Positions 17,306 to 47,804 of a stretch of DNA of 64,000 nucleotides are shown piece after piece. The DNA lies in the NCBI GenBank assembly GCA_963716735.1, contig OY970321.1:2210021-2274020 (forward strand). Reading direction: 5' to 3'. A program made the position numbers and the translations under genes. The DNA comes from an uncultured Solirubrobacterales bacterium (GTDB taxonomy: Bacteria; Actinomycetota; Thermoleophilia; Solirubrobacterales; 70-9). The notes under the pieces are model-generated. The model did not search any database and was not told the DNA's origin. It worked only from the letters and a program-made list of their open reading frames with translations. How positions within the stretch are numbered: position 1 is the stretch's first letter; each line of letters begins with the position of its first letter.

Positions 17306-18040
17306 TCAGGCGCATCCGTCGCGGACTCTCTTCGGCGATGCCATATAGAGAGTCGCCCGGCCGTTCCAGTAGCTGGCGACATTGCGCACATCGAACCCGG
17401 CGGCCTCCAAAAGCGCGCTGACATAGTCGCGGGTGAAAAACCACCACCAGGCCTCGTAGGGGTTCCAACCCTCGCGCTGCAGATCCCACTCCTCGCCGAC
17501 CGCGTGGTTCACGCCGTACGCAAACGGCGCCCCGTTTTCGCGCAGCCACTCACCGAGAATGACACGCTGACTGTCGGTCATCGCCGGAACGAGCAGCGCC
17601 GTGCCCGGTTCGACGCTGATGGCTCCGGCGGAGGTGGCGACGGTCTCGGGCATCGTCGCCGTGCCCAGTATCAGGGTCCCCCGAACTAGTGCGCACAGGT
17701 TGCGCAGCGTGCGCAACGGTTCGGGACAGTGGTAGAGGACACCGCTGCAATGGACGGCGTCGAAGGAGCCGACTTTGTCTACGAGCGCGTGATCGTCGAC
17801 GCTGCCGTGAATGCAGCGTACGCCCGCCACACCGTGTTCCTCCAGCCGAGACTCGAAGGCTCCCCAGAGATCTTCGGGGCCGCCCTCGGGCGCGATGTCG
17901 ATCATCGTCAGGTCGGTGGCACCGGCAGCAGCAGCAACGGTGACTTGCTCATTCACCACCCCCCAAAGACCGCCCACCTCGGCAAAGGAGCTACCAGAAG
18001 CAACCGCCGCGATCCAGCTCTCCCTGAGGCCGTCTCCCAC
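17306..18040 (-). CDS. Putative class I methyltransferase-fold protein
   Basis: 244 aa. SFAEVGGLWGVVNE...DLTMIDI...FDAVHCSGVLYHCPEPLRTL resembles MTase motifs I, II and post-III. It is the first gene after an AT-rich spacer. Confidence 0.55.
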   Translation of the reverse strand: MGDGLRESWIAAVASGSSFAEVGGLWGVVNEQVTVAAAAGATDLTMIDIAPEGGPEDLWGAFESRLEEHGVAGVRCIHGSVDDHALVDKVGSFDAVHCSGVLYHCPEPLRTLRNLCALVRGTLILGTATMPETVATSAGAISVEPGTALLVPAMTDSQRVILGEWLRENGAPFAYGVNHAVGEEWDLQREGWNPYEAWWWFFTRDYVSALLEAAGFDVRNVASYWNGRATLYMASPKRVRDGCA

Positions 18041-22612: not shown

Positions 22613-22636
22613 GAGCGACCCGGTTGCTCCATGGCC

Positions 22637-24022: not shown

Positions 24023-24055
24023 TACACCCCGACCCTACGCGTTCGGACTCTGTCC

Positions 24056-25228: not shown

Positions 25229-25250
25229 CGTATTGCCGCTGCGCTCTAGC

Positions 25251-26255: not shown

Positions 26256-26983
26256 CCGAGAGCGCTCTCGACGAAGAGATTGAGCTGCTTCGCTGGGACA
26301 GCGAGCATTTCAGGTTTCCCATTGCACGGGTATGTGACCCCACGGGCCCTGCGCGGATGAGTACAGCGGTTGACGTCGCCGAAAGCCGGGGCGTTCGTTG
26401 TCTCACTGCGCTGGTGAAAGCGGATCGAGTTGATGTCATTACCACCGCTGAGGATCTCGGGTTCCGCTGCTATGACGTCCGGACTGACCTCGACCGGCAA
26501 ATCGATGGTTCGCATGACATGTCGGCTGACCAGGGCCTTCGGCTTGCCACCGAATCTGATCTTCCTCACCTAGAGCCCATCGCGCGGGAGCGGTTCTCCG
26601 CTACTCGATTTGTCAGTGATTCGCACTTCCCGAGTGAGCTTGCAAGGAACCTCTATGTGGAGTGGCTTAGGCGAGGACATCGGGATGCGGGCCGCCGGTT
26701 GATCACGGCGAGCGGGCTGGACGGATTCGTCGTCTGCCGCCTCGATGGCGAAAGTGGGGTCGGTACCATTGAGTTGATCGCCGTGTCAGCGGAAGCAGAG
26801 GGTACGGGGCTCGCCGCGCGACTACTGCATGGAGCCGAGTCGCTCTTTATGGATGCGGGACTCGCGCGCGCTCATGTGGTGACCCAGGGACGTAATCTGT
26901 CGGCACAGAGGCTGTACCAGCGCCACGGCTATCGCACTGGAGACGTAAGCCTGTGGCTTCACCGGTGGGCGCCTAGCCGCTGA
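26252..26983 (+). CDS. wecD: dTDP-4-amino-4,6-dideoxyhexose N-acetyltransferase (WecD-like two-domain GNAT)
   Basis: Architecture and motifs parallel my recollection of E. coli WecD. LRWDSEHFRFPIARV matches LTWENAFFG. RFVSDSHFPSELARNLYVEWLRRG matches RFRAPWY...YAQWIENA. VVTQGRNLSAQRLYQRHGYRTGDVSLWLHRW matches VATQMGNTAALKRYIQSGA...YWLYR. The GTG start overlaps the upstream stop (GTGA). Confidence 0.7.
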   Translation: MTESALDEEIELLRWDSEHFRFPIARVCDPTGPARMSTAVDVAESRGVRCLTALVKADRVDVITTAEDLGFRCYDVRTDLDRQIDGSHDMSADQGLRLATESDLPHLEPIARERFSATRFVSDSHFPSELARNLYVEWLRRGHRDAGRRLITASGLDGFVVCRLDGESGVGTIELIAVSAEAEGTGLAARLLHGAESLFMDAGLARAHVVTQGRNLSAQRLYQRHGYRTGDVSLWLHRWAPSR

Positions 26984-28727
26984 TCGGTTCGGCCCAGTAG
27001 GGGACGGGTCCCCATCGGCTGAGCCGGGTTTCGCACTGCCGCTTCGAGGTGACATGCAAAGCGACCCCCCGAGCGGGGCTGACGAAGTAGACGGGGTGTC
27101 GTCCTTCTCCATACGGAGCGACGAGTTCTCCCAGCTGCGTGATTCCACGGGTGCCGCAGGCGACGTCTTCGTCGAACGGCGACGCGAAGTCAGGCCTTAT
27201 CGGGCTTTCGTATTCGATCACTCCGCGAAAGTCCCAGGTTTGGGCGAAGACCGGAATCCAGCCTTGCTCCCATCTAGGAGTATCGAAGCCCATGACCCGG
27301 GCGGTCGTGGGTACGTTGCGTAGGCCCTTGCGAAGTCCAGGAAGAGTCCTCTTCTGGATGCTCCATGAAGCAAGCCAGGCGTCCTGGTGTTCGGTGCTTA
27401 CGGCGAGCTGATGCTTTGCCGCGGCAGCGAATACGAGGAGCACGGCGAGGGGTGCAGCCGGAGCCCAGGGAGACCACCGTCGAACCAGCTCATACAGAAG
27501 GCCCAAGACCGCGACGAACGCGAGTACATAGGGAATCGTGCCCGGCAGATTGAGGCGGTTATTGGTGCTGAAGTACTGCAGCAGGTAGGTGTCATTGGCC
27601 GTGAGGAAGATCAGGGAGCATGCGATCGCGGCGACGGCTGCCGCCAGGAGCACAACCCACCACCGGATCAGCCGATGTCTCATGCTTGGAACGGCGAGGG
27701 TCACCGTCGCCGCTGCGAGGACGATGCATCCCAGGGCGATCAGCCCAAAGCGCGGCGCATATAAGTAGCGCCAGCTATCCCATGCACCTTCGACCAGGAC
27801 ACCGGCTCGCGTCACGAGCTGGCCAGTCGTACGTTCGGTCATGAAGGCCGGATCGTTGGTTGGTGCGACCACCAAACGGTAGAAGACGAACGCCATGACC
27901 AAGCCCAGGTCGGCGAGCCAGCGAATGAATGCTTTTCTGCTGCGGAAGATGGCGAGGTACACGGCCCCCTGGACTGCGATGAGCGGGACCGCAATCTCAT
28001 AGGTGGCCATGGCGATCAGGGCGAGCGCGGCCGAAAGACCGTGCAGGGCCCAACTCCGCCGGCCCTCCGGTCGATCCAGGGCCCGGATGGCGATCATCAG
28101 GCTCGCCATCTGAAGCAGGATCACGTACAGGCCGATGGTTGCGATCGGCCACAGTCGACTCGAGTCCGCGCCCGGAAAGAGGATGATCGCGCCGCCGATT
28201 GCCAGGCACCAAAGTCTGGCCAAGCCGGCCCGGCGAGCAACCGCATATGCGATGGCGACGATCGCGAAGAGCAGCACGATCGGAAGAACGTGATACGCCC
28301 ATTTGTGTCCTCCGAAAGCAGACCACTGCCCCGCCTGGTAGAGGCAGGCAAGCTTACGGCCGCCCGGGATCGTTTCCATGCACGTGTTCATCCCCGCCCA
28401 TAGCGACCCCTGTGACTTCTGTTCCGCATACACGGTCCAGTCATCGAGGAACCAGCCTGCCTCGGTCGCATAAGGCAAGTACAGTGCCAGCGTCAGCAAG
28501 AGCAAGCCGAGTAAGCAGGCAAAGTCGGCCAACGAGTACCGTGGCCACCCGCCGTTGCTGGACTCCGTATCCGGGGCCAATGACCTGGTCGTATCGATTT
28601 TTCGAGGAGGCGCTTTGGGGCTGGCTGCCATTGGCCGCATTACGCTACTTGTTGGCTCGGGTCGAGCGATCGCAAGCAGCGCCGGGGCTAGGACTCTGCA
28701 CCAGGCGGCTGCAAGTCGCCGATTCAT
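26973..28727 (-). CDS. Polytopic membrane protein, possible GT-C-type glycosyltransferase (paralog of 2481-4148)
   Basis: 584-aa ORF with more than 10 hydrophobic segments. WFLDDWTVY follows the first TM and IRALDRPEGRR comes later. The C-terminal ~130 aa are soluble. Start uncertain (ATG 28727, 28640 or 28631). Confidence 0.7.
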   Translation of the reverse strand: MNRRLAAAWCRVLAPALLAIARPEPTSSVMRPMAASPKAPPRKIDTTRSLAPDTESSNGGWPRYSLADFACLLGLLLLTLALYLPYATEAGWFLDDWTVYAEQKSQGSLWAGMNTCMETIPGGRKLACLYQAGQWSAFGGHKWAYHVLPIVLLFAIVAIAYAVARRAGLARLWCLAIGGAIILFPGADSSRLWPIATIGLYVILLQMASLMIAIRALDRPEGRRSWALHGLSAALALIAMATYEIAVPLIAVQGAVYLAIFRSRKAFIRWLADLGLVMAFVFYRLVVAPTNDPAFMTERTTGQLVTRAGVLVEGAWDSWRYLYAPRFGLIALGCIVLAAATVTLAVPSMRHRLIRWWVVLLAAAVAAIACSLIFLTANDTYLLQYFSTNNRLNLPGTIPYVLAFVAVLGLLYELVRRWSPWAPAAPLAVLLVFAAAAKHQLAVSTEHQDAWLASWSIQKRTLPGLRKGLRNVPTTARVMGFDTPRWEQGWIPVFAQTWDFRGVIEYESPIRPDFASPFDEDVACGTRGITQLGELVAPYGEGRHPVYFVSPARGVALHVTSKRQCETRLSRWGPVPYWAEPISG

Positions 28728-28740
28728 ATGATGGCTCGCA

Positions 28741-31700
28741 GTGAGTGACGAGCGGACGCCAATCCTCTATCTCGCCCCTTGGGTTGACCTCGGTGGCTCC
28801 GACAGGGGGACGATCGATTGGTTCAAGAACATCGATCTGAGCCGCTGGGCGCCTTCGCTGATTACCACTACTCCCTCGCCCAATCGATGGCTGCACCACG
28901 TCGAACCGTACGCCGAGGAGATCTGGAACCTTCCCGACTTGATGCCGGGTGCCGCCTTTCCCGAGTTCATCCTCGGCTTCATCGAGAGTCGTCAGGTCGG
29001 GGTCGTCCACATCATGAACTCGCGGCTCGGCTACGACCTGCTGCCGGACATGACCTGCCTGCCCGAACCTCCGGCGATCGTCGTCCAGCTGCATGCCGAG
29101 GAACCGAACCAGACCGGCTACGTCCGCTACGTGACGCGCCGCTACGGCAACCTGATCGATTCCTTCTCCGTCGTCAGCGAGAACCTCAAGCAGACGATCG
29201 TCGACTATGAGATCCCGCCCAGCCGGATCGAGGTGATCTATCTGGGCGTCGACAGCCGGGAGGAGTTCGACCCCGAGCGGGTCGAGCCCCTGGAGCTGCC
29301 GGGCAACGGCGCCAGCAGGATCCTCTGGCCCGGTCGCCTGGTCGAGCAGAAGGACCCGATGTTGACCCTCGAGGTCCTCGCTCGGGTTCGGGAGCGGGAC
29401 GAGGATTTCGTTCTCGACGTCGTCGGCGACGGCCACCTGAAGGAGCCTGCTCGTGCCCGGGCCGAGGAGCTCGGCGTCGCTGACGTCATCCAGTGGCACG
29501 CGCCTTCCCAGGACATGGCTCGCTGGTATCGCAGCAGCGACCTGCTGCTGATGACGAGCGTCTACGAGGGTATTCCGCTGGTGATCTACGAGGCCCTGGC
29601 GATGGGCGTCCCGGTTGTCGCGCCGGCCCTGCCGGGCAACGTCGAGTTCATGGATGCCGACAGCGGTGTGCTGGTCGATCCACGCGACGACGTCGATCGC
29701 TACGCCGAGGCGATCGTCTCTCTGCTCGGCGACGATGAGCGGCGGCGGGAGATGGGCGAGCGCTCACGCAAGCGCATGCTCGAGCAGTTCTCCCTGGCGG
29801 AGATGGGGCGCCGCCACGACGCTCTGTACGAGCGCTTGCTGTCGGAACAGACGGCGAGCAGCCGCTGGCGCAACGAGGAGCTGTTCGGCGAAGAGGACCC
29901 CGGGCATCGCGAGCCGAGTAGCGCCCCGCCGGCTCCGCTGAGACTTTCGCGCGACCCGCTGCCGGAGCCCACCGTCGGTGTGATCGTTCCCTGCTACCGG
30001 CACGGAATCTTCCTCGACGCCTGCATCGCCTCGATCAAGGCTCAGACGCTGACTCCGTCGCAGATCGTCGTCGTCGACGACGGCTCTAAGGATGCTGAGA
30101 CCGTTGCGGCGCTCGCTCGCCTCGACGACGACCCCCAGGTGACGGTCCTGCGCCAGCCGCGGAACTCAGGGCCGAGCGCCGCGCGCAACCGGGCGCTCGC
30201 GCAGCTCAAGACCAGCTACTTCCTGCCGATCGACGCCGACGATGAGCTGTTGCCCGATGCGCTGGAGCGCATGCTGGCGCAGTTGGAGGGAGCACCCGAA
30301 GAGGTCGGCTTTGTCTACCCGAATGCGCAGCACGTCGGCAACCAGATGAACTACGTTCAATCGCCGGCCTACAACGTCTGGCTGCTGATGGAGCAGAACT
30401 ACTGCCCGGCGCCGGCGCTGTTCGATCGCCGCCTGTTCGAGGGCACCGGTGTTTCCTATCCGGAGGAGATAGTGGTTGGCCACGAGGACTGGGATCTGAT
30501 CCTCCAGCTGGCGGAAAGGGACGTGCGCGGGATCCCCGCCAACGGGCCCACCTTTCTCTACCGCAAGCAGGGCTTCAGTCGTGTCCACGCCGTCGACTAC
30601 GGACCCGAATCCTTCGAGAAGACGATCGAGCGGCGTCACCCACATCTGTATCTGGACCGCGACGATCTCAAGGCCAAATGGGCGCCGGCGCTGAGCCTCG
30701 TGCTGCTCGACGAGGAGGGGGACACCTGGAAAGCAGACGACCTCTCGGGGTTGACGCGGCAGACCTGCCGGGATTTCGAGCTGCTGGCGGGAACCGATCT
30801 GGGCGGCCGGGTCCGCCTCGTCGAGGGCCCCGGCAAGCTCTCGATCGCTTGGCTGCAAGCGGCGATCGACCGCGCCCGCGGGCGCTGGATCCTGCTTCTG
30901 CCTCACTCCGCTTTCCCGATACTCGAATCGTCCTCCTTCGTCGAGCAGCTCATCCACGCTTTCTCCGCGAACGAGGGTGCCACCGCCATCGTGCTGGCCG
31001 ATTCAACGGAGATCGCCCGCCCGCTCTTCTCGCAGCTCGACAACGCCGAGCGCTTGCGGGCACAGCCGGCGGCGATCGCCTTCGAACGTCCGTTGTGGGG
31101 TCGGGTGCCCGAGATCACCCTCGGCGTCGAGGCATCGTTGTTGGCGGACCTCGTCGTCGGTTTGAGGGTTATCGGCCCGGCACAGTGGCGGGTCGCTCCA
31201 GGCGTTGACGGTGGTGGCCCTTGGAGGCAGCGCGTCGAGCCCGAGGACCACCCCGCGATGATCGACGTCAACGTGCCCGTTCCTGCGGACAAGGCGGATG
31301 CGGCGATGCGGCACATGGTCGCCCACCAGCCGCCGCGGCTGCCCGAGCTGACTCCTGGCACCGTGCGGCGGTGGAAGCAATCGGAGCCCTGGACTCCCCC
31401 TCAGACGCGGTTGCTTTGCCGCCATCTAGACCTGAAGACCGGTTTCCGGATGATCACGCCAGAGCGCAAGCCCCCGTCTGGGTACCGCTTCGAGCGCGTA
31501 CTCGGCTGCACCCAGATCTTTGCTGCCCCAGGCATGAGCCGCTTGGTTCACGCCAACCACAGCTTCGAGCTGACAGATGAGCAGGGCGCGCTACCCGACG
31601 GACAATTCGACATGGGGTACGTGGAGCAGCAGCCGCTGCCGCAGCTCGAGGGGCTGGAGCTGCGGCGAGTGCCGGAGACCGGCCAGGAGATCCTCGTGGC

Positions 31701-32340
31701 CGGTCCCGACGATCCGCTCATCTACAACTCGGAGCAAATTGCGTTCCTGGGCTGGATCGAGGCATGTCCGATCCTCCCGCGTGCGAGCGAGATCATCCAT
31801 ACAGGCCCCTGGGCGGTGGTCGCGCTCCATCGCCGGGTCAACCGCGCGGTGTGGAAGCACAGCTATCGTGCCGACTCGCCGCTGCGGGCGGAGGGGGAGG
31901 GAATCGCGCTGGGCTTGCTTCAGCGCCACGCCGGTCCCGGGGCGGTTGCGCTCCGACTTCGGTCCGACGGCCGCCTCGCCAGCGAGCTCGTCAACCCGGG
32001 ACGCGCCAGCCGTGACCCGCGCAAGATCGGGCGTTGGGTCGCAGAGCCGCTGCACGCAGAGGATGCTGGACATCGAGCTGTCGGCGCCGGATCACGTCTG
32101 CGCCACCTCGCGAGCAACTTTCGAGGGCGTCGCCTCGCGACGGAGGAGGGCGAGGTTCTCGGCTATCTACGGCGCCAGACCATGTCCGGCTGCAGCACCC
32201 TCTACAGCACGATCCACCCTGTCACCGGCGATCAGCTCGTCACCCGCTTCCCGTCCGAGGCGATAGACGCCGGCTATGTGATGGACGGCATCCTGGGGGC
32301 GATCTTCGATCCGCCCGGCGATTCGACTCGAACTTTCTAG
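28741..32340 (+). CDS. Giant multidomain glycosyltransferase (GT4 + GT2 + ~550-aa C-terminal region of unknown function)
   Basis: GTG 28741. GT4: ILYLAPWVDLGGSDRG...SVYEGIPLVIYEALAMGVPVVAPALPGNVE. GT2: VGVIVPCYRHGIFLDACIASIKAQTL...VVVDDGSKD...PIDADDEL...EDWDL. From about residue 650 I recognise no catalytic motif. Confidence 0.8.
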   Translation: MSDERTPILYLAPWVDLGGSDRGTIDWFKNIDLSRWAPSLITTTPSPNRWLHHVEPYAEEIWNLPDLMPGAAFPEFILGFIESRQVGVVHIMNSRLGYDLLPDMTCLPEPPAIVVQLHAEEPNQTGYVRYVTRRYGNLIDSFSVVSENLKQTIVDYEIPPSRIEVIYLGVDSREEFDPERVEPLELPGNGASRILWPGRLVEQKDPMLTLEVLARVRERDEDFVLDVVGDGHLKEPARARAEELGVADVIQWHAPSQDMARWYRSSDLLLMTSVYEGIPLVIYEALAMGVPVVAPALPGNVEFMDADSGVLVDPRDDVDRYAEAIVSLLGDDERRREMGERSRKRMLEQFSLAEMGRRHDALYERLLSEQTASSRWRNEELFGEEDPGHREPSSAPPAPLRLSRDPLPEPTVGVIVPCYRHGIFLDACIASIKAQTLTPSQIVVVDDGSKDAETVAALARLDDDPQVTVLRQPRNSGPSAARNRALAQLKTSYFLPIDADDELLPDALERMLAQLEGAPEEVGFVYPNAQHVGNQMNYVQSPAYNVWLLMEQNYCPAPALFDRRLFEGTGVSYPEEIVVGHEDWDLILQLAERDVRGIPANGPTFLYRKQGFSRVHAVDYGPESFEKTIERRHPHLYLDRDDLKAKWAPALSLVLLDEEGDTWKADDLSGLTRQTCRDFELLAGTDLGGRVRLVEGPGKLSIAWLQAAIDRARGRWILLLPHSAFPILESSSFVEQLIHAFSANEGATAIVLADSTEIARPLFSQLDNAERLRAQPAAIAFERPLWGRVPEITLGVEASLLADLVVGLRVIGPAQWRVAPGVDGGGPWRQRVEPEDHPAMIDVNVPVPADKADAAMRHMVAHQPPRLPELTPGTVRRWKQSEPWTPPQTRLLCRHLDLKTGFRMITPERKPPSGYRFERVLGCTQIFAAPGMSRLVHANHSFELTDEQGALPDGQFDMGYVEQQPLPQLEGLELRRVPETGQEILVAGPDDPLIYNSEQIAFLGWIEACPILPRASEIIHTGPWAVVALHRRVNRAVWKHSYRADSPLRAEGEGIALGLLQRHAGPGAVALRLRSDGRLASELVNPGRASRDPRKIGRWVAEPLHAEDAGHRAVGAGSRLRHLASNFRGRRLATEEGEVLGYLRRQTMSGCSTLYSTIHPVTGDQLVTRFPSEAIDAGYVMDGILGAIFDPPGDSTRTF

Positions 32341-33632
32341 CTCGAACTCCTCCGCCGACGGAGTGCAGCGCCGGCCTTGCGCATCGGAGCCGTCATTCGC
32401 CAGGAGCGCGATTCGAGTATCTCGGCGAGCGCGGCCGCGGAGTGCTCGTCGGCCGGCGGGTCAGGCGCGCTGCCGCCGCTCAGCGGTGGCGGGCCCGGCA
32501 GGTGACGTCGCCGGTAGCTCGGGGGCAGGCCGAAGCCTCGTTTGCTCCTTTCCACGACCCCTTCGACGGCGGGCTCCAGGTCGGCGCGGCCCGCGGCCCG
32601 GACGGCGTCGAGCACGTCTTCCCAGAGGGTGAGGACGAGGATCTGTTTGGTCTTGAACGTGGCGAGATTCTGCAGGTCGAGGTCAGGCGGGAAGGTTTGA
32701 ATTCCGGAGCGAACGCCGAACGCCTCCAGGGTGATCATGGTCATCAGGCACTTCCGGCAGCGGCCGCAGTTGTAGGCGCTCCCACGGTTCTCCCAGCAGA
32801 CGCGAAGCGTTCGCTGCACCAGCGGGTGGCCGGCGATCCTTTTCGTTCGCTCGGCTCGTGAGTAGCGCCCGCCATCGTCGACGATTTCGAGCTGCTCGCT
32901 GTTCCAGAGGTGGTCGACGAGCCGGGCCGAGCCGATCGGAGGACCGTCGACCTCATGGTCCATGCCGCTGGCGAGCAGCACCCTTTCGAACCTGGGTGCC
33001 AGGAAGTGGGCCACCGCCATGCAGGCGCTGGCGTAGTAGGCATCCCAGAGCACCAACGGGTCGGAGAGCTCCCTCAGGTCGGTTTCGACCACGTGCAGAG
33101 TGAGGCCCAATTCTTCGGCCACCTCACGCACACGTGCTTCGACCTCGGGAGCGACCTCCGCGTGGTGCGTTGCCCCCGGGATCAGATCGAACCCACGGGC
33201 AAAGATGAGGTCGGTGATCTCGGGATGGTCGAGCAGCGTCGACCAGGAGTCGACCCCGCCGCTGAAGAAAGCCGCGACACGACCGGGTTCCCGCGGGGCC
33301 TCAGGCGCACGCGTGGGCGCGATCACCTCCACCTCCTCGAACGGGGGTTCGCCGAACTCCCAATCGAGCGACCAGGCGCGCTGGACCGCCTGGTACTCCC
33401 GCTGAGATCGCAGAACTCTTGGGCTGACCGGCCCAGGCAGCGTGAGGGTGCCACCGAAGCGCATCGCCGGCATCAGGCACGCGGCGAGCGCCGGGTCGGC
33501 GCCGGTGGCGGTCTCGCCACCCTCCGCCCGCATCCGCACGCGCCGGTCGTGTCCGCCCAGCCGCGCGCGGAAGCTGAGCTCGCCCGGCGAGCAGTTCAGC
33601 TCGGTGACCTCGTGATGGTCCGTCGCGGCCAC
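32337..33632 (-). CDS. PP-loop (SGGxDS) ATP-pyrophosphatase-like protein, QueC-like Cys cluster, SWRMTAPMR tail
   Basis: AAFFSGGVDSWSTLL (PP-loop) and VCWENRGSAYNCGRCRKCLMTMITLEAFG (CxxCxxC as in QueC-type enzymes). An N-terminal ~125 aa and a C-terminal Pro-rich linker plus LESRSWRMTAPMRKAGAALRRRR are unassigned. Confidence 0.65.
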   Translation of the reverse strand: MAATDHHEVTELNCSPGELSFRARLGGHDRRVRMRAEGGETATGADPALAACLMPAMRFGGTLTLPGPVSPRVLRSQREYQAVQRAWSLDWEFGEPPFEEVEVIAPTRAPEAPREPGRVAAFFSGGVDSWSTLLDHPEITDLIFARGFDLIPGATHHAEVAPEVEARVREVAEELGLTLHVVETDLRELSDPLVLWDAYYASACMAVAHFLAPRFERVLLASGMDHEVDGPPIGSARLVDHLWNSEQLEIVDDGGRYSRAERTKRIAGHPLVQRTLRVCWENRGSAYNCGRCRKCLMTMITLEAFGVRSGIQTFPPDLDLQNLATFKTKQILVLTLWEDVLDAVRAAGRADLEPAVEGVVERSKRGFGLPPSYRRRHLPGPPPLSGGSAPDPPADEHSAAALAEILESRSWRMTAPMRKAGAALRRRRSSS

Positions 33633-33638
33633 GCTCGT

Positions 33639-35144
33639 TCAGTGCGAGCCCTCGCCGCGCACGATCGCGGCGGGGGTGCGCAGCAGGATCGCCAGGTCGC
33701 CGGCGACGGAGATGTTGTCGAGGTAGTCGCGCTCCATCGCCAGCCGCTCCTCGAAGGTCAGGTCGGCGCGGCCGTATACCTGCATCGGGCCCGTCATCCC
33801 CGGCTTGACCGCGAGCCGGATCCGCTGGCGCTCGTCGTAGAGGGCGACGACCGCTTCCTCCTCCGGCCGCGGGCCGACCAGCGACATGTCGCCGCGCAGG
33901 ACGTTGACGAACTGCGGCAGCTCGTCGAAGCTGAAGCGGCGCAGCATGCGGCCCACACGGGTGACGCGGGGATCGTCGGCGATCTTGAAGGCGGGCTCTT
34001 TGAGCTTCTCGAGGTCGACCAGTTCGCCCAGCTGCTCCTCGGCTCCCTGGACCATCGTGCGGAACTTGAGGACGGTGAAGGGCTTGCCGTCCTTGCCGGC
34101 CCGCCTCTGCCGGAAGAGCACCGGCCGGCCCGAGTCGAGCAGGATCAGCACCGAGCTGACGAGCAGCACGGGGGAGAAGAGCACGAGCAAAAACGCGCTG
34201 ATCGTCACGTCCATGAATCGCTTCAGCGCTTCGGTCGAGCGTGGCGGATCGGAGAAGCGGAAGTCGAGGACTGGTAGCTCGGCGAGCCGGTTCAGCTCGA
34301 TGCCGGGCCCGAGCAGGCCGAAGTGCTGGGGCAGGAAGGTGAGCGCCAGGCCGGCGGCCTTGCACTGCTCGATCAAGCGCTCCGCCGCCGCCTCGCTCAT
34401 CTCCTGCTCGGTCACGATCACTCGCTCGACGTCGTGTTCGCGGGCGACGCGGGAGATGTCGCCGATCGATCCGAGGCGCGGCAGTCCGCCCATCCGGGGT
34501 GCGGCGTCCTCTCCGCGCGGCGTCAGGTAGCCGACCAGGTGCAGCCGGGTCTCCGGGTGGGTGGCGACCCGGCGGGCGACCACGGTGATCGCCGCCGCCG
34601 GCCCGACCACGATCCCGGTCGCGGCCCCGGCCAGGCGGTGCCAGAAGAAGCGCAGGACGGCGCGTGAGGCAAAGGCACCGATCAGCGCGCCCAGGCCGAC
34701 GGCGATCGCGCTGGCCGCCGCCAGTGGCCCTACCGGGCTCAGCGCCAGCAGCCCGTCCAGTGCCAGCGTCCCCAGAGCCGCCGCCGAGATCAGGCTGGAG
34801 AGCTCGTCGAGGGTGCTGTGGCGGATGCGGCGGTGGTCGTTGTCGTAGAGGCCGTGCAGCTTCAGCACGAGGATCCAGACCGGGCTGAACATCGTCGCCC
34901 AGAAGAGCGTGCCGACATCGGTCTCCGGGCTCGCCGCAGTGACGATGCAGAGCGTCGCCACCATGGTCAGCCAGTCGCCGGTTGCCAGCATCCGCCGCAG
35001 CAGCGAGCCACGCCGCCGCGCTCCGCCGGCGCCGGTCAGTCCCAGCCGGGTTGCCGCCTCGGTTCTGCCACCACGCGGGTCCGGCCCTGGCTGTTGTGCC
35101 GGCGAGGTCATACGGGTTGGGGTCTCCTGCGCCTTGCTCGTCAT
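33639..35144 (-). CDS. Polyprenyl-phosphate sugar phosphotransferase (WbaP/WsaP/CpsE-type initiating enzyme)
   Basis: N-terminal TM block, central Rossmann-like region, and a C-terminal bacterial sugar transferase domain. Motifs: LKRFMDVTISAFLLVLFSPVLLV...RRAGKDGKPFTVLKFRTM...DELPQFVNVLRGDMSLVGPRP. The start is taken at ATG 35144 (MTSKAQ); the track start 35189 is TTG. Confidence 0.88.
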   Translation of the reverse strand: MTSKAQETPTRMTSPAQQPGPDPRGGRTEAATRLGLTGAGGARRRGSLLRRMLATGDWLTMVATLCIVTAASPETDVGTLFWATMFSPVWILVLKLHGLYDNDHRRIRHSTLDELSSLISAAALGTLALDGLLALSPVGPLAAASAIAVGLGALIGAFASRAVLRFFWHRLAGAATGIVVGPAAAITVVARRVATHPETRLHLVGYLTPRGEDAAPRMGGLPRLGSIGDISRVAREHDVERVIVTEQEMSEAAAERLIEQCKAAGLALTFLPQHFGLLGPGIELNRLAELPVLDFRFSDPPRSTEALKRFMDVTISAFLLVLFSPVLLVSSVLILLDSGRPVLFRQRRAGKDGKPFTVLKFRTMVQGAEEQLGELVDLEKLKEPAFKIADDPRVTRVGRMLRRFSFDELPQFVNVLRGDMSLVGPRPEEEAVVALYDERQRIRLAVKPGMTGPMQVYGRADLTFEERLAMERDYLDNISVAGDLAILLRTPAAIVRGEGSH

Positions 35145-35151
35145 CGTCGGC

Positions 35152-37167
35152 TCACCCGCAGCTCGGTTTCCCGCGGAGACACTTCTCAAGCGGGTTCAGG
35201 TGTCGTGCCTGTTCCAGATCCGCTTCGGCCGCGGCCTGGTCGCCCGCCTCTTCCTCGACTTTAGAGCGTAGGTAGTAGTACTGCCAGTTGCGGTCCTCGC
35301 GGTCGATGGCTTGCGTTAGGCGTTCGACGGCCACCGGATAATTCCCTTCGCTCTCGGCGATCAGGCCGAGCTGCACGTAGGGAGAGGCGGCGAAGGGCTC
35401 GATCGAGCGCGCCGTCTTGGCGTGGCTGGTGGCGCTGGTGAGGTCGCCGTTTGCGGCGGCGCTCTGACTGGCGTCGAGCTCGCGATCGACGAGCAACGGA
35501 CCGATCAGCGCGATCGCCGCCATCCAGGCGACCGCGAGGCCGGCGACCGCGAGGCCGAAGCGCCGCTCTTCGCCCGCGGCTACGAGGCGGGGGTCGGGAG
35601 GAGCCGCCAGTTGGGCGCACCTGGCCGCCACCAACACCCCCGAGGCGAGGAAGAAGACCACCCCCAGGCCGGCGATCTCCCAGAACCAGTCGAGCCCGGC
35701 GACCACGGCGAAGGCGAGCGTCGCCGCGAGGAGCGCGGCGTAGCGCTCGCGTTGCGGGTGGGGCGCGGCGCGCCAGGCGCTGAACCCGGTCCAGAGCAGA
35801 GTGGCGACCAGCACCAGCACGAGCAGCCCGCCGACGATGCCGAGCTCGGCGAAGGCCTCCAGGTAGAGGGAGTGGGCATCGTGGACCGGCATGTCGATCG
35901 AGCGATGTCGATCCCAGGCGAACACGTAGGTGCCGGCGCCGACCCCGAGCAGCGGCTTTTCGTCGAAGGCATCGATCGCGACGCGGTAGAAGTCGTGACG
36001 GCCGGCCCCGTTGAACTGCGAGAAGTGCTGCTCGGGCTGGTTCGGGAACTGGACGTCGGAGCTGGAGAACTGATCCCAGGCACGACCGCCGATCGCGATC
36101 GCCACCCCGATCGCAATGACCGCCGCCACCGCGGCGACGCCTTTCAGCAGCGACCGGTTGCGCGAGAGATCGACGGCGCGGCCGGTCAACCGCCCTTCTC
36201 GCCGCTCGGCCCAGCGCTGCGCGGCGAAGAGCAGCAGGGTGAGGGCGACCCCCGCGGCGAGGATCAAGAGCACGGTCACGCCCTGGTCCACGGCGGCCTG
36301 GTTGTCGACGTGGTCCGCCAGGCTGTGCCGCGCCTGCACCGCAAGCACCGCCGGTAGTGCGCCCAGGGCCCCGCAGGCCAGGGTCGCAAGCAGCCAGAGG
36401 CGGTCTCGGGAGAGGACGATGAGACAGCCGGCGGCGATCAGCAGGGCCAGCAGCCCACCGCGCGAGTAGGTGAAGTAGAGGGCGAGCATGACCACCGGCA
36501 ACATCCCGGCAGCGAGCCAGCGCAGTCCGCTCCAGGCCGCTCTGCGGCTGCTCCAGAGCAGCAGGGCGATGGCGATCCCGAACATCGCGCCGTTGGCGTT
36601 CCAGTAGCCGAGCGGGTAGCCCAGGCGCGGGCCGGTACCGAATGCGTCGCCGGCCTGCAATACGTGCGGTAGAAGGCGGCTCGCGAGGGCCAGCAGGGCG
36701 ACGAGCGCCAGAGAAATTGCCAAGCCTTCAGCGAAACGTTGGCGCCTTTGGTCGGTTTGGGCGATCAGGAATGCGACTAGGAAGACCCCCAGGTAGACCA
36801 GACCCCGGTCCGCCTCGATCACGCTCAGCTCGGCTGAGCCCGACCAGAGGGATGAAATTGCAGCCAGCAGGGAAAAACCGAGAGTCAGTCCCGTCGCCCA
36901 GTAGAACGGTCGTGCCAGCGTTGCCCGGGAGGCGACGCCGAGCAGGATCAGCGCGACCACGACAAGCCATACGGCAAGGCCCGCAATGTGGCGATCGCTC
37001 ACCTCGAAACCGCCGCCAGCCAGCGCCAGAGCGACGATCAGGACGACTGGCGCAAGTAACGCCGAGCTTTCCTCTAACCTACCGCGCCATGTTTGGGACG
37101 CGCCAAAATCTCGCCCCTCGCCGGGGCGGCCACGTCTTCGCTCTGTCAGTGCTGGCTCTGCTGGCAA
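35152..37167 (-). CDS. O-antigen ligase/polymerase-like (Wzy_C domain) membrane protein with C-terminal TPR repeats
   Basis: More than 10 TM segments. LALYFTYSRGGLLALLIAAGCLIVL (Wzy_C-type SRGG motif) and a large loop with HDAHSLYLEAFAELG. C-terminus: PYVQLGLIAESEGNYPVAVERLTQAIDREDRNWQYYYLRSKVEEEAGDQAAAEADLEQA (TPR-like). The TTG start 37167 is uncertain; it overlaps the divergent gene by 79 nt. Confidence 0.8.
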   Translation of the reverse strand: MPAEPALTERRRGRPGEGRDFGASQTWRGRLEESSALLAPVVLIVALALAGGGFEVSDRHIAGLAVWLVVVALILLGVASRATLARPFYWATGLTLGFSLLAAISSLWSGSAELSVIEADRGLVYLGVFLVAFLIAQTDQRRQRFAEGLAISLALVALLALASRLLPHVLQAGDAFGTGPRLGYPLGYWNANGAMFGIAIALLLWSSRRAAWSGLRWLAAGMLPVVMLALYFTYSRGGLLALLIAAGCLIVLSRDRLWLLATLACGALGALPAVLAVQARHSLADHVDNQAAVDQGVTVLLILAAGVALTLLLFAAQRWAERREGRLTGRAVDLSRNRSLLKGVAAVAAVIAIGVAIAIGGRAWDQFSSSDVQFPNQPEQHFSQFNGAGRHDFYRVAIDAFDEKPLLGVGAGTYVFAWDRHRSIDMPVHDAHSLYLEAFAELGIVGGLLVLVLVATLLWTGFSAWRAAPHPQRERYAALLAATLAFAVVAGLDWFWEIAGLGVVFFLASGVLVAARCAQLAAPPDPRLVAAGEERRFGLAVAGLAVAWMAAIALIGPLLVDRELDASQSAAANGDLTSATSHAKTARSIEPFAASPYVQLGLIAESEGNYPVAVERLTQAIDREDRNWQYYYLRSKVEEEAGDQAAAEADLEQARHLNPLEKCLRGKPSCG

Positions 37168-37664
37168 TGTGCTGTGTTCCGGTGCTCGCTCAGGCTTCGT
37201 CCGCCGGCTACCAGTATTCCGATGCGCCGCCCACGGTAACCGGGGGCAAGCCGCCGAGTGAATCGAATCTCTCGGGTGGCTCCAAGTCGACTAGCGGCAT
37301 CGGCTCGCACGCGGGCAGTGGCAAGTCGGGTGGGAAGTCTTCTGGTGGGAATGGCTCACTCTCAAAGTCCAATGGCTCCGGTGGCGGCGGAAACGGAGCA
37401 GGCCAGCAGGGTAGCCAAGGCGGCGGCAACCAAAACTCGGGTGTCGGGGCCGGAGGAGAAGCAAACGGCACCAGCGCCGAACCGGGATCGAGCGACGGCG
37501 GCTCTTCGCCGCTGGTGCCGATCCTGATCGCGATCGTGCTGCTCGCCGGTGGCTCCATCGCCTATGTGGTGATCAAGCGTCGCCGCGCCGGCGACCCTGG
37601 CTCGGCCGACTCGACCGATTCGCCGGGGTCCGCCGACTCCTCCGTCTCGCCCGAGGCGAGTTAG
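37089..37664 (+). CDS. Gly/Ser-rich secreted protein with C-terminal membrane anchor
   Basis: ATG 37089. Signal peptide MFGTRQNLAPRRGGHVFALSVLALLAMCCVPVLAQA. About 110 aa of G/S/N/K low complexity follow, then TM PLVPILIAIVLLAGGSIAYVVI and KRRRAGD plus an acidic Ser-rich tail. Confidence 0.6.
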   Translation: MFGTRQNLAPRRGGHVFALSVLALLAMCCVPVLAQASSAGYQYSDAPPTVTGGKPPSESNLSGGSKSTSGIGSHAGSGKSGGKSSGGNGSLSKSNGSGGGGNGAGQQGSQGGGNQNSGVGAGGEANGTSAEPGSSDGGSSPLVPILIAIVLLAGGSIAYVVIKRRRAGDPGSADSTDSPGSADSSVSPEAS

Positions 37665-37668: not shown

Positions 37669-38799
37669 ATGCGCCACCAGGTAATCGGCCCGCCGCGGCG
37701 GGCTCGCCTTTGGCTAGCGGCTTTTGCGATCGCCTCCCTTGGGGTGCTTGCCCTCGCGTCTTCGGCCCTCGCTGTTCCCGCCAACTTCTGGGGTGTGGTG
37801 CCGCAGGTGGCGCCGAGCGCGGAAGAACTGCAGCGGCTCAAACGCGGCGGTGTCGACAGCATCCGCGTTCCCGTCTCCTGGGGTTCGATCCAGCCCACCA
37901 GGCACGGTGGCTATGACTGGTCGAGCACCGATTCCTACATCGCCGCGGCGATTACCGCGCGTATCGAGGTCTTTCCCTTCCTCTCCACGGCGCCGTCCTG
38001 GGTGGTGGCCGTCGACCGGCGTTTCGGCAGCCCGGTCACCCTGCCGGTGCGGACGGGCGTGCAGCGATCCGGTTGGACGCAGTTCGTCAAACAGGCGGTG
38101 TTGCGCTACGGGCCGAACGGCACCTTCTGGACCGAAAATCCGAGCCTGCCGCGGAGGCCGCTCCGCACCTGGCAGATCTGGAACGAGCCGAACTTCAAGT
38201 ACTTCGTCGCGCGGCCCGACCCAGCCGATTACGGCAAGCTGGTGAAGCTCTCCGGCGCCGCGATCAAAGCGATGGATCCGGGTGCCCAGGTCATCCTGGG
38301 CGGCCTCTTCGCGCGTCCGATCGAGGCGACCTTCCACAAGAACCCACCGCAGGCCTACTTCGCCTCCGACTTCCTCGCGCAGATGTACGAGAGCACGCCG
38401 GGGGTCAAGTCCAAGTTCCAGGGCTACGCGCTGCACCCGTACACCGGCAGCTGGAAGAACCTCACCTCGCGGATCGAAGAAGTCCGTCGAGTATTGAAGG
38501 CCAACCGCGATATCGGCAAGGGCCTCTTCCTCACCGAGGTGGGTTGGAGCTCCGAACCGCCCAGGCCGGGCAACAGCTTTGCCAAAGGCGTCGCCGGTCA
38601 GGCGAGGGAACTGAAGGGCGCCTTCCGTCTCTTCAGCGCCAATCAACGAAAGTGGAATCTGCAGCGGGTCTACTGGTTCTCGATCGGCGATTACGCCGGT
38701 CTTTGCAACTTCTGTGGCGGCTCCGGCCTCTTCCGGAGCGGCTTCAAACCGAAGCCCGCCTGGAATGCCTACGTGCAGTTCGCCGGCGGCCGTCCGTAG
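37669..38799 (+). CDS. Secreted clan GH-A glycoside hydrolase-like protein (paralog of 6298-7425)
   Basis: Signal peptide MRHQVIGPPRRARLWLAAFAIASLGVLALASSALA. WQIWNEPN and FLTEVGWSS catalytic-type motifs are present. Confidence 0.75.
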   Translation: MRHQVIGPPRRARLWLAAFAIASLGVLALASSALAVPANFWGVVPQVAPSAEELQRLKRGGVDSIRVPVSWGSIQPTRHGGYDWSSTDSYIAAAITARIEVFPFLSTAPSWVVAVDRRFGSPVTLPVRTGVQRSGWTQFVKQAVLRYGPNGTFWTENPSLPRRPLRTWQIWNEPNFKYFVARPDPADYGKLVKLSGAAIKAMDPGAQVILGGLFARPIEATFHKNPPQAYFASDFLAQMYESTPGVKSKFQGYALHPYTGSWKNLTSRIEEVRRVLKANRDIGKGLFLTEVGWSSEPPRPGNSFAKGVAGQARELKGAFRLFSANQRKWNLQRVYWFSIGDYAGLCNFCGGSGLFRSGFKPKPAWNAYVQFAGGRP

Positions 38800-45360: not shown

Positions 45361-46008
45361 ATGACCGACTTCGGCACCCTTCGGGCGCAGATGGTCGAGC
45401 GGCAGCTACGGCATCGCGGCATCGGCGACGAGCGCGTGCTGGCTGCGATGGGGGAGGTGCCGCGGGAGCAGTTCGTGCCGGAGCGCTTTCGCAAGCGCGC
45501 TTACTCGGACTCGGCGCTGCCGATCGGCGCGGGCCAGACGATCTCCCAGCCCTGGATCGTCGCCGCGATCTGCCAGGCGCTGGAGTTGAGTGGGAACGAG
45601 CGGGTGCTGGAGATCGGCTCCGGGTCCGGCTACTCGGCCGCGGTCGCCGCCCGCCTTGCCGCGGGCATCGTCGGAGTGGAGCGGCACGAGTCGCTGGCGA
45701 CTGAAGCCCGCCGTGTCCTTGACGTGCTCGGCGTCGAGAACGTCGAGCTGCTCGTCGGCGACGGCAGTCGCGGCGTCCCGGCGCGGGCGCCGTTCGAGGC
45801 GATCGCGGTCCACGCCACCGCGCCGGCACCGCCGCGTACCCTGCTCGGACAGCTCGCCGACGGCGGCCGGCTCGTTGTCCCGATTGCCGGCGATGGTGCC
45901 GATCTGCTGACCGTGTTCCGCCGTCATGGCGGTGAGCTGCGCCGCGAGGAGATCAGCCCCTGCCGCTTCGTCCCGCTGATCGGCGAAGAGGGCTTCAGCC
46001 CGGATTAG
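45361..46008 (+). CDS. pcm: Protein-L-isoaspartate O-methyltransferase
   Basis: ATG 45361. GQTISQPWIVAAICQALEL...VLEIGSGSGYSAAVAARL...RLVVPIG..., 215 aa. Confidence 0.88.
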   Translation: MTDFGTLRAQMVERQLRHRGIGDERVLAAMGEVPREQFVPERFRKRAYSDSALPIGAGQTISQPWIVAAICQALELSGNERVLEIGSGSGYSAAVAARLAAGIVGVERHESLATEARRVLDVLGVENVELLVGDGSRGVPARAPFEAIAVHATAPAPPRTLLGQLADGGRLVVPIAGDGADLLTVFRRHGGELRREEISPCRFVPLIGEEGFSPD

Positions 46009-47804
46009 GCACGTCGGCTGCGGAGCTTGTTGCGGCCGCCATGGCCGATCAGGCTGTCGCGGTGGCTGCCGATCAGTACGTCGGGACCTGGAGATCCCTC
46101 GAGCTGCTCTACCGAGGAATCGACGCGGCCGGGGGTGCAGGGGCCGCCCGCACGCGTCGCCGGGCCGCCGATTTCGGCGTTGACGCCAGGCGTAAAGCGG
46201 AAGAAGTTGGCGTCATCCTCACCTGGGCCACCGTCGAAGACGTCGCCGTCGCAAGGATCGCCGCCGACCATCACGTCGCTTCCAGGGCCACCGATAAGCG
46301 TGCTTTTGCCGCTGTTGTAGGGGACCGGCAGGTCGGTGCGTGCGCCGACCAACGCGTCGTCGCCGGCGCCGCCTTCGAGCAGGTCGGGGTCGTTGTCGTC
46401 GCCGGCCTCGAGCACGTCGCCGCCTCGTCCGCCTTGCAGTTGATCGGCCCCGGGGCCGCCTTCGATCCGCACTTCGATCTCAGGGGGAATGCTGCCGTCG
46501 ACGCTCACGCTGTCGTTGCCGCCGCCGGCGTCGATCACGATCGTCTTCACGTCGGCCGCGCAGACGGCGTTGCCGCCGACCGCTTCGCAACCGTCGACGT
46601 CGGCCGTGGAGAACGCGATGCCCGCATCGGTCACGACGTAGGCCGAGCCCTGCCTGGCGATCGCGATCGCGTCATCGTCCGCGGTGCCGCGCACGCTGAG
46701 CGAGCCGCTGCCGTCGATGCTGTGCACGCGGGAGACACTCGGCCCGCCTCCGCTCGTCGCCGGCTTGTCGCAGCCTTCCTCTTGCGCTGAGCCCTCGCAG
46801 CTCGCCCCGTCGGGGCCGCCGAAGAGCGAGTCCCCGCCGCCGCCCCCGTCGAGCTCGTCATAACCGGCGCCTCCGTCGATCCGGTTCGCCCCGCCGTCCC
46901 CGATCAGGGTGTCGTTGTAGGCCGAGCCGATGATGTCCTCGGTCCCGGCTGCGATCTTGTCGCGGCCGTCGCCGTGGGCGCTGCCGGTCGCGAGATCCGC
47001 GGTCACTGCTTCGGAGGCGGTGGAGAAAGAGGCGATGTCGCGGGCGCCGGGACCGCCATCGAGCTTGTCGAAGCCGATGTCACCGCGCATCACGTCTTCG
47101 TCGCCGGCCCCGCCGAAGATGTCATCGCGGCCGTGGTTGCCCAGCAGGAGGTCGGTACCGCCTTCGCCGTTCAGGGTGTCGTCGCCGAGGCCGCCATCGA
47201 CCATGTCTTTGCCGGAACCCCCGTCGAGGCCGTCGTTGCCGCGGCCGCCGTAAACCCGATCCTCGCCGCCTTCGCCGTCGACGACCTTCTCGCTGGCTTT
47301 GCCGGCATACAGGACGTCGTCGCCCCCGCCCGCCTTCATCACATCCGGCCCTCGGCCGCCGAGAAGCTCATCGTCGCCGGCGCCGCCGAACTCGTCGTCC
47401 GGGCCTTTGGCGCCAAGGAGCTGATCGTCACCTTCGCCACCCGCCAGGCTGTCGGCGCCTTTTTCGCCGATCAGGCGGTCCTCGCCGCCTTCGCCGTCGA
47501 TCGTGTCGTTGCCCTTGCCGCCGTGAATGGTGTCGTCGCCGGGACCGCCGCAGATCGTGTTGTTGCCGTTGTGCCCGCCGGAGATCTTGTCGTCACCGCC
47601 GCCGCCGTAGATCACGTCGCTGGCCCTCTTGCCGACGATCGTGTCGTCGCCGGGCGTGCCGACGATCGTCGCGTGCTTGCCGGCGCAGGTCGCGGCCGAG
47701 GCCTGGCTCCAGGCGGGGAGCAGGAGCAGCAGCGTCGTGCCGAGCGCAGCGGCCAGAAGGCGCCAGGAAGTCGATTTGACCAGGGTGGACATTCCAGGCG
47801 CCAT
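46005..47804 (-). CDS. Secreted calcium-binding RTX-like (GGxGxD beta-roll repeat) protein
   Basis: N-terminal signal peptide (LLAAALGTTLLLLLPAWSQASA) followed by dozens of GGxGxD/GxGxDxL nonapeptide-type repeats. Possible start ATG 47792. Confidence 0.8.
   Translation of the reverse strand: MAPGMSTLVKSTSWRLLAAALGTTLLLLLPAWSQASAATCAGKHATIVGTPGDDTIVGKRASDVIYGGGGDDKISGGHNGNNTICGGPGDDTIHGGKGNDTIDGEGGEDRLIGEKGADSLAGGEGDDQLLGAKGPDDEFGGAGDDELLGGRGPDVMKAGGGDDVLYAGKASEKVVDGEGGEDRVYGGRGNDGLDGGSGKDMVDGGLGDDTLNGEGGTDLLLGNHGRDDIFGGAGDEDVMRGDIGFDKLDGGPGARDIASFSTASEAVTADLATGSAHGDGRDKIAAGTEDIIGSAYNDTLIGDGGANRIDGGAGYDELDGGGGGDSLFGGPDGASCEGSAQEEGCDKPATSGGGPSVSRVHSIDGSGSLSVRGTADDDAIAIARQGSAYVVTDAGIAFSTADVDGCEAVGGNAVCAADVKTIVIDAGGGNDSVSVDGSIPPEIEVRIEGGPGADQLQGGRGGDVLEAGDDNDPDLLEGGAGDDALVGARTDLPVPYNSGKSTLIGGPGSDVMVGGDPCDGDVFDGGPGEDDANFFRFTPGVNAEIGGPATRAGGPCTPGRVDSSVEQLEGSPGPDVLIGSHRDSLIGHGGRNKLRSRRA
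47518..47682. repeat. 165-bp segment near-identical to 49491-49655 (2 mismatches)
   Basis: Base-by-base comparison of the two stretches. It encodes GKHATIVGTPGDDTIVGKRASDVIYGGGGDDKISGG.NGN.TICGGPGDDTIHGG in both paralogs. Confidence 0.9.

Follow-up and report, generated by a model that had tools for sequence, protein, structure and literature searches.

A Wzy_C-TPR enzyme and a divergently encoded, membrane-anchored stalk protein in Thermoleophilia: a candidate glycan ligase and its possible acceptor

The genome of an uncultured Solirubrobacterales bacterium carries, within a 64,000-nucleotide (nt) stretch of contig OY970321.1 (positions 2,210,021 to 2,274,020; hereafter the window), a gene for a Wzy_C-type membrane enzyme lying head to head with a gene for a secreted, Gly/Ser-rich protein. 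Does the enzyme place a glycan on the product of its neighbour? The original prediction, made from the letters of the window alone, held that the two are an oligosaccharyltransferase (OTase) and its dedicated acceptor, docked through tetratricopeptide repeats (TPR) at the end of the enzyme. The GC content of the window is ~68% and its nearest relatives are Solirubrobacterales metagenome-assembled genomes (MAGs). We find that the pair is tightly linked, that a glycoside hydrolase is its constant third partner and that the enzyme is more likely a terminal ligase than a polymerase, with the neighbouring protein as a candidate acceptor.

The stalk gene and its linkage to the enzyme

The enzyme gene (35152-37167, minus strand; 671 amino acids, aa) was delimited and assigned as a candidate terminal glycan ligase or O-OTase from Pfam, AlphaFold2 (AF2), Foldseek, topology and ortholog starts. 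Its neighbour, the stalk gene (37089-37664, plus strand), was defined by alignment and profile search and encodes 191 aa of an uncharacterised family, not the 340 aa of the stop-to-stop open reading frame (ORF). The product is predicted to be a type I membrane protein. A signal peptide (residues 1-36, ending AQA) is followed, right after the cleavage site, by a tip motif recognised in the family alignment, SSAGYQYSDAPPTVTG (residues 37-52; 37197-37244, plus strand). Next come a disordered G/S/N/K stalk (residues 53-138; 37245-37502, plus strand), then a juxtamembrane SSPLVPILIA with the transmembrane (TM) helix and a KRRR stop-transfer signal (residues 139-167, from the alignment; 37503-37589, plus strand), and finally a basic tail that runs 24 aa beyond KRRR. 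The secreted layout with one TM helix and a charged tail had been correctly anticipated, while the low-complexity stretch, put at about 110 residues of almost only G/S/N/K/T, is 86 aa long and 76% G/S/N/K/T, with 22 Ser/Thr.

Alignment shows conserved blocks at the signal peptide, the tip motif, the TM segment and a C-terminal S-x-SP-[EK]-A-S. The tip follows the pattern Y-x-[D/E/S]-x-x-P, and just two residues are kept by every member of the stalk family, Y43 (codon 37215-37217) and P48. The stalk keeps its composition but not its sequence, with pN/pS (non-synonymous over synonymous polymorphism) at ~0.9 there against ~0.5 in the signal-peptide/motif block and the TM block. By these measures the stalk sequence drifts almost neutrally, and the conserved parts are the tip motif and the TM anchor.

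Linkage was scored in 80 related Solirubrobacterales loci whose ligases are 62-92% identical to that of the window, 79 of them including upstream DNA. The stalk gene was found in 79/79 of the latter, its frame phase-locked to the ligase and with two hydrophobic segments flanking a low-complexity middle in that same frame. A single copy, in L005 (about 5730-6079), is probably frameshifted: it stops at 114 aa and the remainder lies in another frame, possibly through a long-read assembly error. The block Lhr, hydrolase, stalk, ligase and polyprenyl-phosphate glycosylphosphotransferase (PGT) is syntenic in ~78/80 loci, and a reverse look-up from the stalk protein returned the same arrangement. Genes past the PGT, in contrast, recur in only 0-8 of the 80 loci, and one locus that was checked has another sugar pathway there (FdtA, DegT). 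The ligase follows genome divergence, whereas the genes beyond the PGT change between genomes.

Nine more distant contigs (L082-L090, labelled Solirubrobacterales or Thermoleophilia), whose ligases are 30-34% identical to the window enzyme, extend the association. Eight of the nine have a stalk-type gene with a signal peptide, an N/D-[QE]-Y-x-E-x-x-P motif, a disordered region, an LLLPII-type TM helix and RRR; absence of the gene from orthologous loci, which the original prediction had named as an outcome that would count against it, was not seen in the 79 close loci. In these distant clades the stalk is not Gly/Ser-rich. The gene is divergent from the ligase in L084-L089 and forms part of a single operon (PGT, stalk, ligase, hydrolase) in L090. 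In L082, the cultured Thermoleophilia bacterium SCSIO 60948 (CP053031), it lies ~1 kb downstream of the ligase, after an extracytoplasmic function (ECF) sigma factor gene. The stalk proteins of L084-L090 also have two extra semi-conserved segments, LG.RNAEKLE.HGP.G.A.A..A.ETAP and GSSG.SEVL.QATG, where the window clade has pure Gly/Ser.

Could the stalk ORF be no gene at all, but a frame left open by chance where GC-rich DNA runs antisense to the 5′ end of the ligase? At its third codon positions the GC content is no more than moderate (0.67-0.83), and low complexity inflates open frames. However, the ATG, signal peptide, tip motif, TM segment and C-terminus are kept in 78 loci and in the distant clades, pN/pS is low in the conserved blocks, and most of the gene lies beyond the overlap and is called by many pipelines. 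A profile search returned 446 called family members of 170-280 aa without a Pfam domain, from independent gene callers. A chance frame is so improbable on this evidence that we regard it as effectively refuted, and the comparisons indicate a real gene.

Pfam and NCBIfam scans of stalk proteins from nine clades gave no family, only one spurious glycine-rich match. Many members are labelled by JGI as cobalamin biosynthesis Mg chelatase CobN, an evident low-complexity artefact. Three further identities were considered and set aside. A lipoprotein signal peptide was rejected, as the Cys found 8 residues ahead of AxA varies and is not set in a canonical lipobox. A sortase or exosortase C-terminal signal was likewise rejected, there being no partner enzyme and a conserved tail beyond the basic cluster; among the window proteins scanned there was no exosortase family, and the stalk protein matched no PEP-CTERM model in Pfam or NCBIfam. 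Lastly, ECF sigma genes lie near the ligase in three distant loci (L082 10355-10903, L084 8185-8622 and L089 7136-7714) and not in the window, but an anti-sigma role is unlikely for a protein whose cytoplasmic tail is only 10-36 aa. The same three loci have an ORF of 58-81 aa right after the ligase, which in L082 and L084 separates ligase and sigma gene and in L089 overlaps the convergent sigma gene. The sigma neighbours hint at envelope-stress regulation of the module.

The coding 5′ ends of ligase and stalk overlap antisense by 79 nt (37089-37167), as originally noted, and ortholog comparison shows that the overlap is conserved (median 79 nt, range 76-133, 61 loci). The only in-frame starts available to the ligase are TTG at 37167 and GTG at codon 56. 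We take the TTG as the start because the GTG would remove the conserved first TM helix; residues 28-55, which include this helix, show protein-level conservation in every relative. The TTG position is ATG in 52/61 scored orthologous loci, and the stalk start is ATG in 61/61. A scan of the overlap for sigma-70 consensus promoters found none, the consensus being uninformative for this phylum.

The third partner, which the original prediction had missed, is a PslG-like glycoside hydrolase of family 39 (GH39), secreted or anchored (37669-38799, plus strand), which begins 4 nt past the stalk stop codon, within one operon. Its Pfam GH39 match is weak (E 0.018); we assign it on its similarity to PslG (PDB 5bx9, E 5.4e-10 over residues 165-371) and on the catalytic motifs NEP and TEVGW of clan GH-A. 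The hydrolase is kept in 78/80 related loci and adjoins the ligase in 9/9 distant ones, with NEPN and TE..W motifs. In the complete genome of L082 the GH39-like ORF just ahead of the ligase (6740-7957) has no gene call, giving an apparent 1.3-kb gap. The window also has a second PslG-like hydrolase right after the exporter genes wzm/wzt (6193-7425, plus strand), 38% identical to the first (E 4e-84) and with NEE in place of NEP. The hydrolase next to the stalk gene in some related loci is nearer to this second window copy (66-70% identity) than to the first.

Domains, topology and fold of the enzyme

Pfam Wzy_C (PF04932) matches residues 300-451 of the enzyme with E 1.2e-16 and 61.2 bits against a cutoff of 31.7, which is above the gathering score and places it in the superfamily of WaaL, O-OTases and some Wzy proteins. 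This core (35815-36270, minus strand), supported by topology and the family alignment, includes a large outward loop (residues 360-441). Within the loop R390, H432 and E441 are invariant family-wide, and R362, D392, R422 and H429 in the close clade only. R181 and R236 are also invariant family-wide and R280 is conserved in >=90%; R181, R280, R390, H432 and E441 fall in predicted outward loops and R236 in a predicted TM helix. The catalytic Arg, Arg and His of periplasmic loops are R215, R288 and H338 in E. coli WaaL, and R224, R298 and H349 in PglL (PMC3643930). The best NCBIfam match of the core is TIGR03097, far under its cutoff (38.6 vs 188 bits).

After TM15 (residues 537-555) comes a C-terminal TPR module of about three repeats (residues 572-662; 35182-35454, minus strand), identified by profile, AF2 and Foldseek. 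In the PDB, residues 572-662 of the family profile align with consensus TPR proteins (E 2e-11), bearing out the proposed tail of ~100 aa (~90-100 aa by this match), and Pfam TPR_16/TPR_2 at residues 600-659 stay under the gathering cutoff. In Foldseek comparisons with peptide-bound modules the fold resembles CTPR390 with an Hsp90 peptide (3kd7, TMt 0.91-0.93) and HOP TPR1 (1elw, 0.87), and we class it by profile and fold as a three-repeat TPR of the peptide-binding type. Two near-invariant Cys, C663 and C670, lie at the extreme C-terminus. Such a tail, which the original prediction called unusual for lipid A-core ligases, is not unusual for O-OTases: WsfB and PglL are described as having one (PMC2943079).

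A topology of 15 TM helices fits the positive-inside rule at all loops, with the N-terminus inside and loop 360-441 and the TPR outside. TPR, putative catalytic loop and stalk ectodomain are thus all predicted on the outer side. The AF2 model built from a diverse alignment reached pLDDT 89.6 and pTM 0.90; an earlier run with close homologs only (73-82% identity) gave pLDDT 51.9 and was left out of the fold search. The top Foldseek match in the PDB is WaaL (7tpg_B, E 1.1e-5, probability 1.0, TMt 0.57) and the second is the SEDS protein FtsW. The enzyme therefore has a WaaL-type fold, assigned among matches that include no solved Wzy_C-type polymerase as comparator. An exhaustive profile search found 1957 representatives of the family at 50% identity and E<=1e-30; more than 100 among the matches listed span core and TPR at full length, and the TPR is conserved among them.

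Ligase or polymerase, and which acceptor

Glycan export by an ABC transporter requires no Wzy polymerase. A terminal ligase or O-OTase is more likely than a polymerase because the enzyme occurs with such routes, in the window and in L089, where an ABC transporter adjoins the ligase locus. Moreover, it coexists elsewhere with Wzx and a separate shorter Wzy_C protein: the latter occurs besides the TPR form in L082, L083 and L085, and L083 and L085 also have a Polysacc_synt flippase. It is conserved (62-92%) beside changing glycan genes, and its nearest solved structure is WaaL 7tpg, which adds to the same preference. A Wzy polymerase would be expected beside Wzx and a chain-length regulator, as the sole Wzy-like protein and varying with the repeat unit, and this pattern was not found. 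The original prediction would fall if the enzyme clustered phylogenetically with O-antigen polymerases rather than with ligases or OTases; context, conservation and the structural match favour a ligase.

As to the acceptor, the stalk protein is the most economical candidate because the host is a monoderm without lipid A-core and the linkage is invariable. It is the adjacent, co-conserved gene that a dedicated acceptor would have, by linkage. The linkage suggests such a role; the transfer, its site and the parts played by TPR and hydrolase are inferred. The proposal that the Ser-rich stalk is the dedicated acceptor gains from the ancient, tight association and loses in its choice of region, since it is the tip motif and the TM segment that are conserved and not the Ser-rich part. 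Y43, P48 and an acidic residue stay fixed in an otherwise unconserved protein, and the conserved tip is the likelier recognition or attachment site, with the stalk looking like a spacer.

Tentatively, and with a little less than even confidence, we favour a ligase with the stalk protein as its dedicated acceptor. The glycan would be started on polyprenyl phosphate by the adjoining WbaP-like PGT, extended by a conserved family 2 glycosyltransferase (GT2), with rhamnose, and then by strain-variable transferases, and exported via Wzm/Wzt in the window genome and via Wzx in others. On the outer face of the membrane the ligase would pass the glycan en bloc to its divergently encoded neighbour, the stalk protein, whose N-terminal tip (G-[VIL]-[QE]-Y-x-[D/E]-x-x-P-T) would serve as recognition or acceptor element. 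The disordered stalk of ~90 aa would act as a spacer that may take the glycan across the wall. The TM segment, the outward TPR of peptide-binding type, or both, may keep enzyme and acceptor together, and the co-transcribed PslG-like GH39 may trim or release the polymer.

Several points weigh against this proposal. The case for a ligase-dependent glycan on the stalk protein is one of linkage, and co-occurrence was sampled within the class Thermoleophilia only, where L083, alone among the nine distant loci, has no stalk gene within 8 kb. Ligase and polymerase are inseparable by sequence. With hhalign the family profile gave no alignment to E. coli K-12 WaaL; a PDB sequence search with the ligase core gave zero matches and the full profile TPR matches only. 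Pfam (E<=0.01) reported only Wzy_C and TPR families in the enzyme, and neither PglL_A (PF15864) nor Wzy_C_2 (PF11846). The most constant partner, in all nine distant loci, is GH39, which is typical of exopolysaccharide machines (Psl) and not of protein glycosylation, and the TPR could dock this hydrolase instead of the stalk protein. The suggestion that the TPR is a docking site for the stalk keeps the support of its predicted outward position and peptide-binding-like fold, and its ligand might instead be the hydrolase. Moreover, two orphan window proteins of ~10 TM helices (2481-4148 and 26973-28727, both minus strand) could be a flippase, polymerase or extracytoplasmic glycosyltransferase in disguise. 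Both finish in a soluble C-terminal part and fall in no Pfam or NCBIfam family; a DD pair in the first loop of the second may be GT-C-like.

The context evidence for a terminal ligase would equally fit one with another acceptor, which could be peptidoglycan, a glycolipid of the membrane or, in a general O-glycosylation system, a multitude of secreted proteins. In that case the stalk protein would serve as an accessory subunit, possibly a wall-spanning, membrane-anchored adaptor that places GH39 or the polymer, or a regulator. The stalk gene is indeed co-transcribed with GH39 and not with the ligase in most loci, its conserved TM segment suggests an intramembrane partnership over mere substrate status, general PglL systems work without an adjacent substrate gene (PMC3643930), and secreted RTX proteins are encoded nearby. 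Yet no LCP-family gene or other obvious acceptor is conserved with the module among the proteins scanned, the tip is sequon-like with an invariant hydroxyl residue (Tyr) in a Pro/Thr context, and the stalk gene of L090 sits between PGT and ligase in one operon; we judge another acceptor rather unlikely. Taking the enzyme instead as a Wzy-type polymerase, or a component of a Psl-like exopolysaccharide machine (PslA-like PGT, PslJ-like Wzy_C protein, PslG-like GH39), would turn the TPR into a dock for the hydrolase, as in PelB-PelA and PgaA-PgaB, and the stalk protein into a lineage-specific chain-length or tethering factor. This would suit a GH39 that is most similar to PslG and the most constant partner, a PGT of PslA/WbaP architecture, a Pfam family that includes polymerases too and a very large, diversified enzyme family. 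It sits badly with an enzyme that is present where an ABC transporter provides a polymerase-free route, that stands alongside Wzx and separate shorter Wzy_C proteins and that is strongly conserved beside variable glycan genes, contrary to the usual Wzy pattern; moreover, no PCP/Wzz-like gene was seen. A polymerase is in our view unlikely.

If the stalk protein is indeed the acceptor of a terminal ligase, the module would represent a previously undescribed mode of variable polysaccharide display in Gram-positive-type bacteria. It would add a very small sequon-like acceptor to the short list of O-OTase substrates, which is of practical interest for glycoconjugate engineering. Moreover, it would give a role to an orphan stalk family and to a Wzy_C-TPR family of ~2000 clusters (50% identity, E<=1e-30) that dominates abundant, poorly studied soil actinobacteria. 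A bolder version, which we think rather unlikely as a whole, is that Thermoleophilia anchor a strain-variable, O-antigen-like surface polysaccharide on a dedicated carrier protein, a membrane-anchored, disordered, wall-spanning stalk, and not on lipid or peptidoglycan. A WaaL-like ligase, recognising the stalk through TPR and TM segments, would glycosylate it at a single invariant tip motif, possibly at Tyr43, and the PslG-like hydrolase would control shedding. The outcome would be a bacterial proteoglycan in place of lipid A-core in a monoderm. Strain SCSIO 60948 is a cultured carrier of the trio, which makes the hypothesis directly testable.

The glycan cluster of the window and related systems

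Immediately downstream of the ligase lies the initiating PGT, WbaP/EpsB-like (33639-35189, minus strand; Bac_transf 4e-62; TIGR03025, 352 bits, above cutoff). These coordinates are ORF bounds and the true start is probably later. The PGT, of the architecture Bac_transf plus CoA_binding_3, is kept in 78/80 related loci. In 63 related loci it is directly followed by a GT2, a candidate second-step (adaptor) transferase according to the related-locus comparison. In the window this GT2 (20794-21678, minus strand) is parted from the PGT by an inserted island of lower GC (21686-33632), which probably represents strain-specific glycan decoration. The island encodes GT2s, a pyruvyl transferase, a DegT aminotransferase, a GNAT protein, a 1199-aa fusion of family 4 and family 2 glycosyltransferases (GT4-GT2), the second orphan 10-TM protein and a 431-aa orphan. 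The latter (32337-33632, minus strand) matches no family; SGGVDS (PP-loop-like) and CGRCRKC were read by eye, and it may be sugar amidotransferase-like.

Further along the cluster are large GT4-GT2 fusion enzymes and a methyltransferase. The dTDP-rhamnose genes rmlA, rmlD and rmlB-like (11528-14452, plus strand) are also common beside the PGT in related loci. Export genes of the ABC-transporter-dependent type, for Wzt (ABC ATPase with a Wzt_C glycan-binding domain) and Wzm (ABC-2 permease), lie at 4042-6248 (plus strand). The scan of window proteins turned up no flippase of the Wzx type, no further Wzy_C protein and no member of the LCP family, and the layout reads as an ABC-transporter-dependent, O-antigen-like pathway. 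Wzt (4042-5400, plus strand) has Wzt_C and a stand-alone methyltransferase is encoded in the cluster (17306-18040, minus strand); by analogy with E. coli O8/O9a and Geobacillus, the two suggest export coupled to a chain-terminating methyl cap. Two adjacent secreted RTX-repeat proteins (46005-47804 and 47879-49777, both minus strand; 8-9 matched stretches each) may be surface or S-layer-like proteins and are possible alternative glycosylation targets. The pair was not found in the ±6-10 kb flanks of related loci, and equivalents would fall beyond that range.

Wzy_C-TPR OTases and the adjacency of enzyme and acceptor are known already. What is new here is the orphan stalk family, marked by a Tyr and a Pro that never vary in its tip, the constant GH39 partner, the conserved antisense start overlap and the breadth across Thermoleophilia. 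The nearest parallels are the S-layer O-OTases WsfB of Paenibacillus alvei and WsaB/WsaA of Geobacillus stearothermophilus, likened to the window enzyme by description and not by sequence. They too work in monoderms, and their Wzy_C core is joined by TPRs, as a C-terminal module in WsfB and as the neighbouring protein WsaA in G. stearothermophilus. The slg cluster of G. stearothermophilus parallels the window in its rml genes, wzm/wzt, WbaP-like WsaP, methyltransferase and Wzy_C OTase WsaB (PMC2943079). These systems use a rhamnose-containing adaptor, and glycan linkages to Tyr, Thr and Ser are all known (PMC2943079). Their acceptor, however, is a large self-assembling S-layer protein, whereas the candidate here is a disordered type I membrane protein of 191 aa, and no GH39 partner is described for them.

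Among the O-OTases TfpO/PilO (with PilA), PglS (with ComP), TfpM and PglL, Wzy_C-family enzymes likewise transfer en bloc from lipid, and cognate acceptor genes adjoin TfpO/PilO, TfpM, PglS and many PglL homologs (PMC3643930, PMC12645811). PglL prefers disordered Ala/Pro/acidic contexts (PMC3643930, PMC12645811). The pilin O-OTases differ in their diderm hosts and folded pilin acceptors, and the window enzyme gave no match to PglL_A or Wzy_C_2, the hallmark domains of PglL/PglS. Moreover, the divergent, overlapping ligase and stalk genes are unlike the co-directional pilA-tfpO. TfpW, beside PilA, is also a membrane glycosyltransferase with a periplasmic C-terminal TPR next to a protein acceptor (bioRxiv 10.1101/2020.04.19.049825), but it has an ArnT/Emb-like GT-C fold with a DDX motif and polymerises from monosaccharide lipid donors.

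WaaL (7TPG) shares the fold and the conservation beside a variable glycan cluster, and it works with both Wzx/Wzy and ABC routes, beside both of which the window family occurs. Invariant Arg and His in predicted outward loops of the window family may correspond to those of WaaL. It has 12 TM helices against 15 plus TPR here, where the host is without lipid A-core, and similarity to it is undetectable by hhalign. TIGR03097, a putative O-glycosylation ligase of exosortase A/PEP-CTERM systems, pairs a Wzy_C-type enzyme with secreted low-complexity proteins ending in a motif, a TM helix and an Arg cluster; the stalk family differs in having SSPLVPIL/LLLPII and not PEP, a conserved tail past the Arg cluster and no exosortase found. 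Lastly, the Psl machinery brings together the same three protein types, the PGT PslA, the Wzy_C-type protein PslJ and the GH39 PslG. It differs in being a diderm, Wzx/Wzy-like system with polysaccharide co-polymerase (PCP) and outer membrane polysaccharide export (OPX) proteins, whose Wzy_C protein is without TPR and which has no stalk protein.

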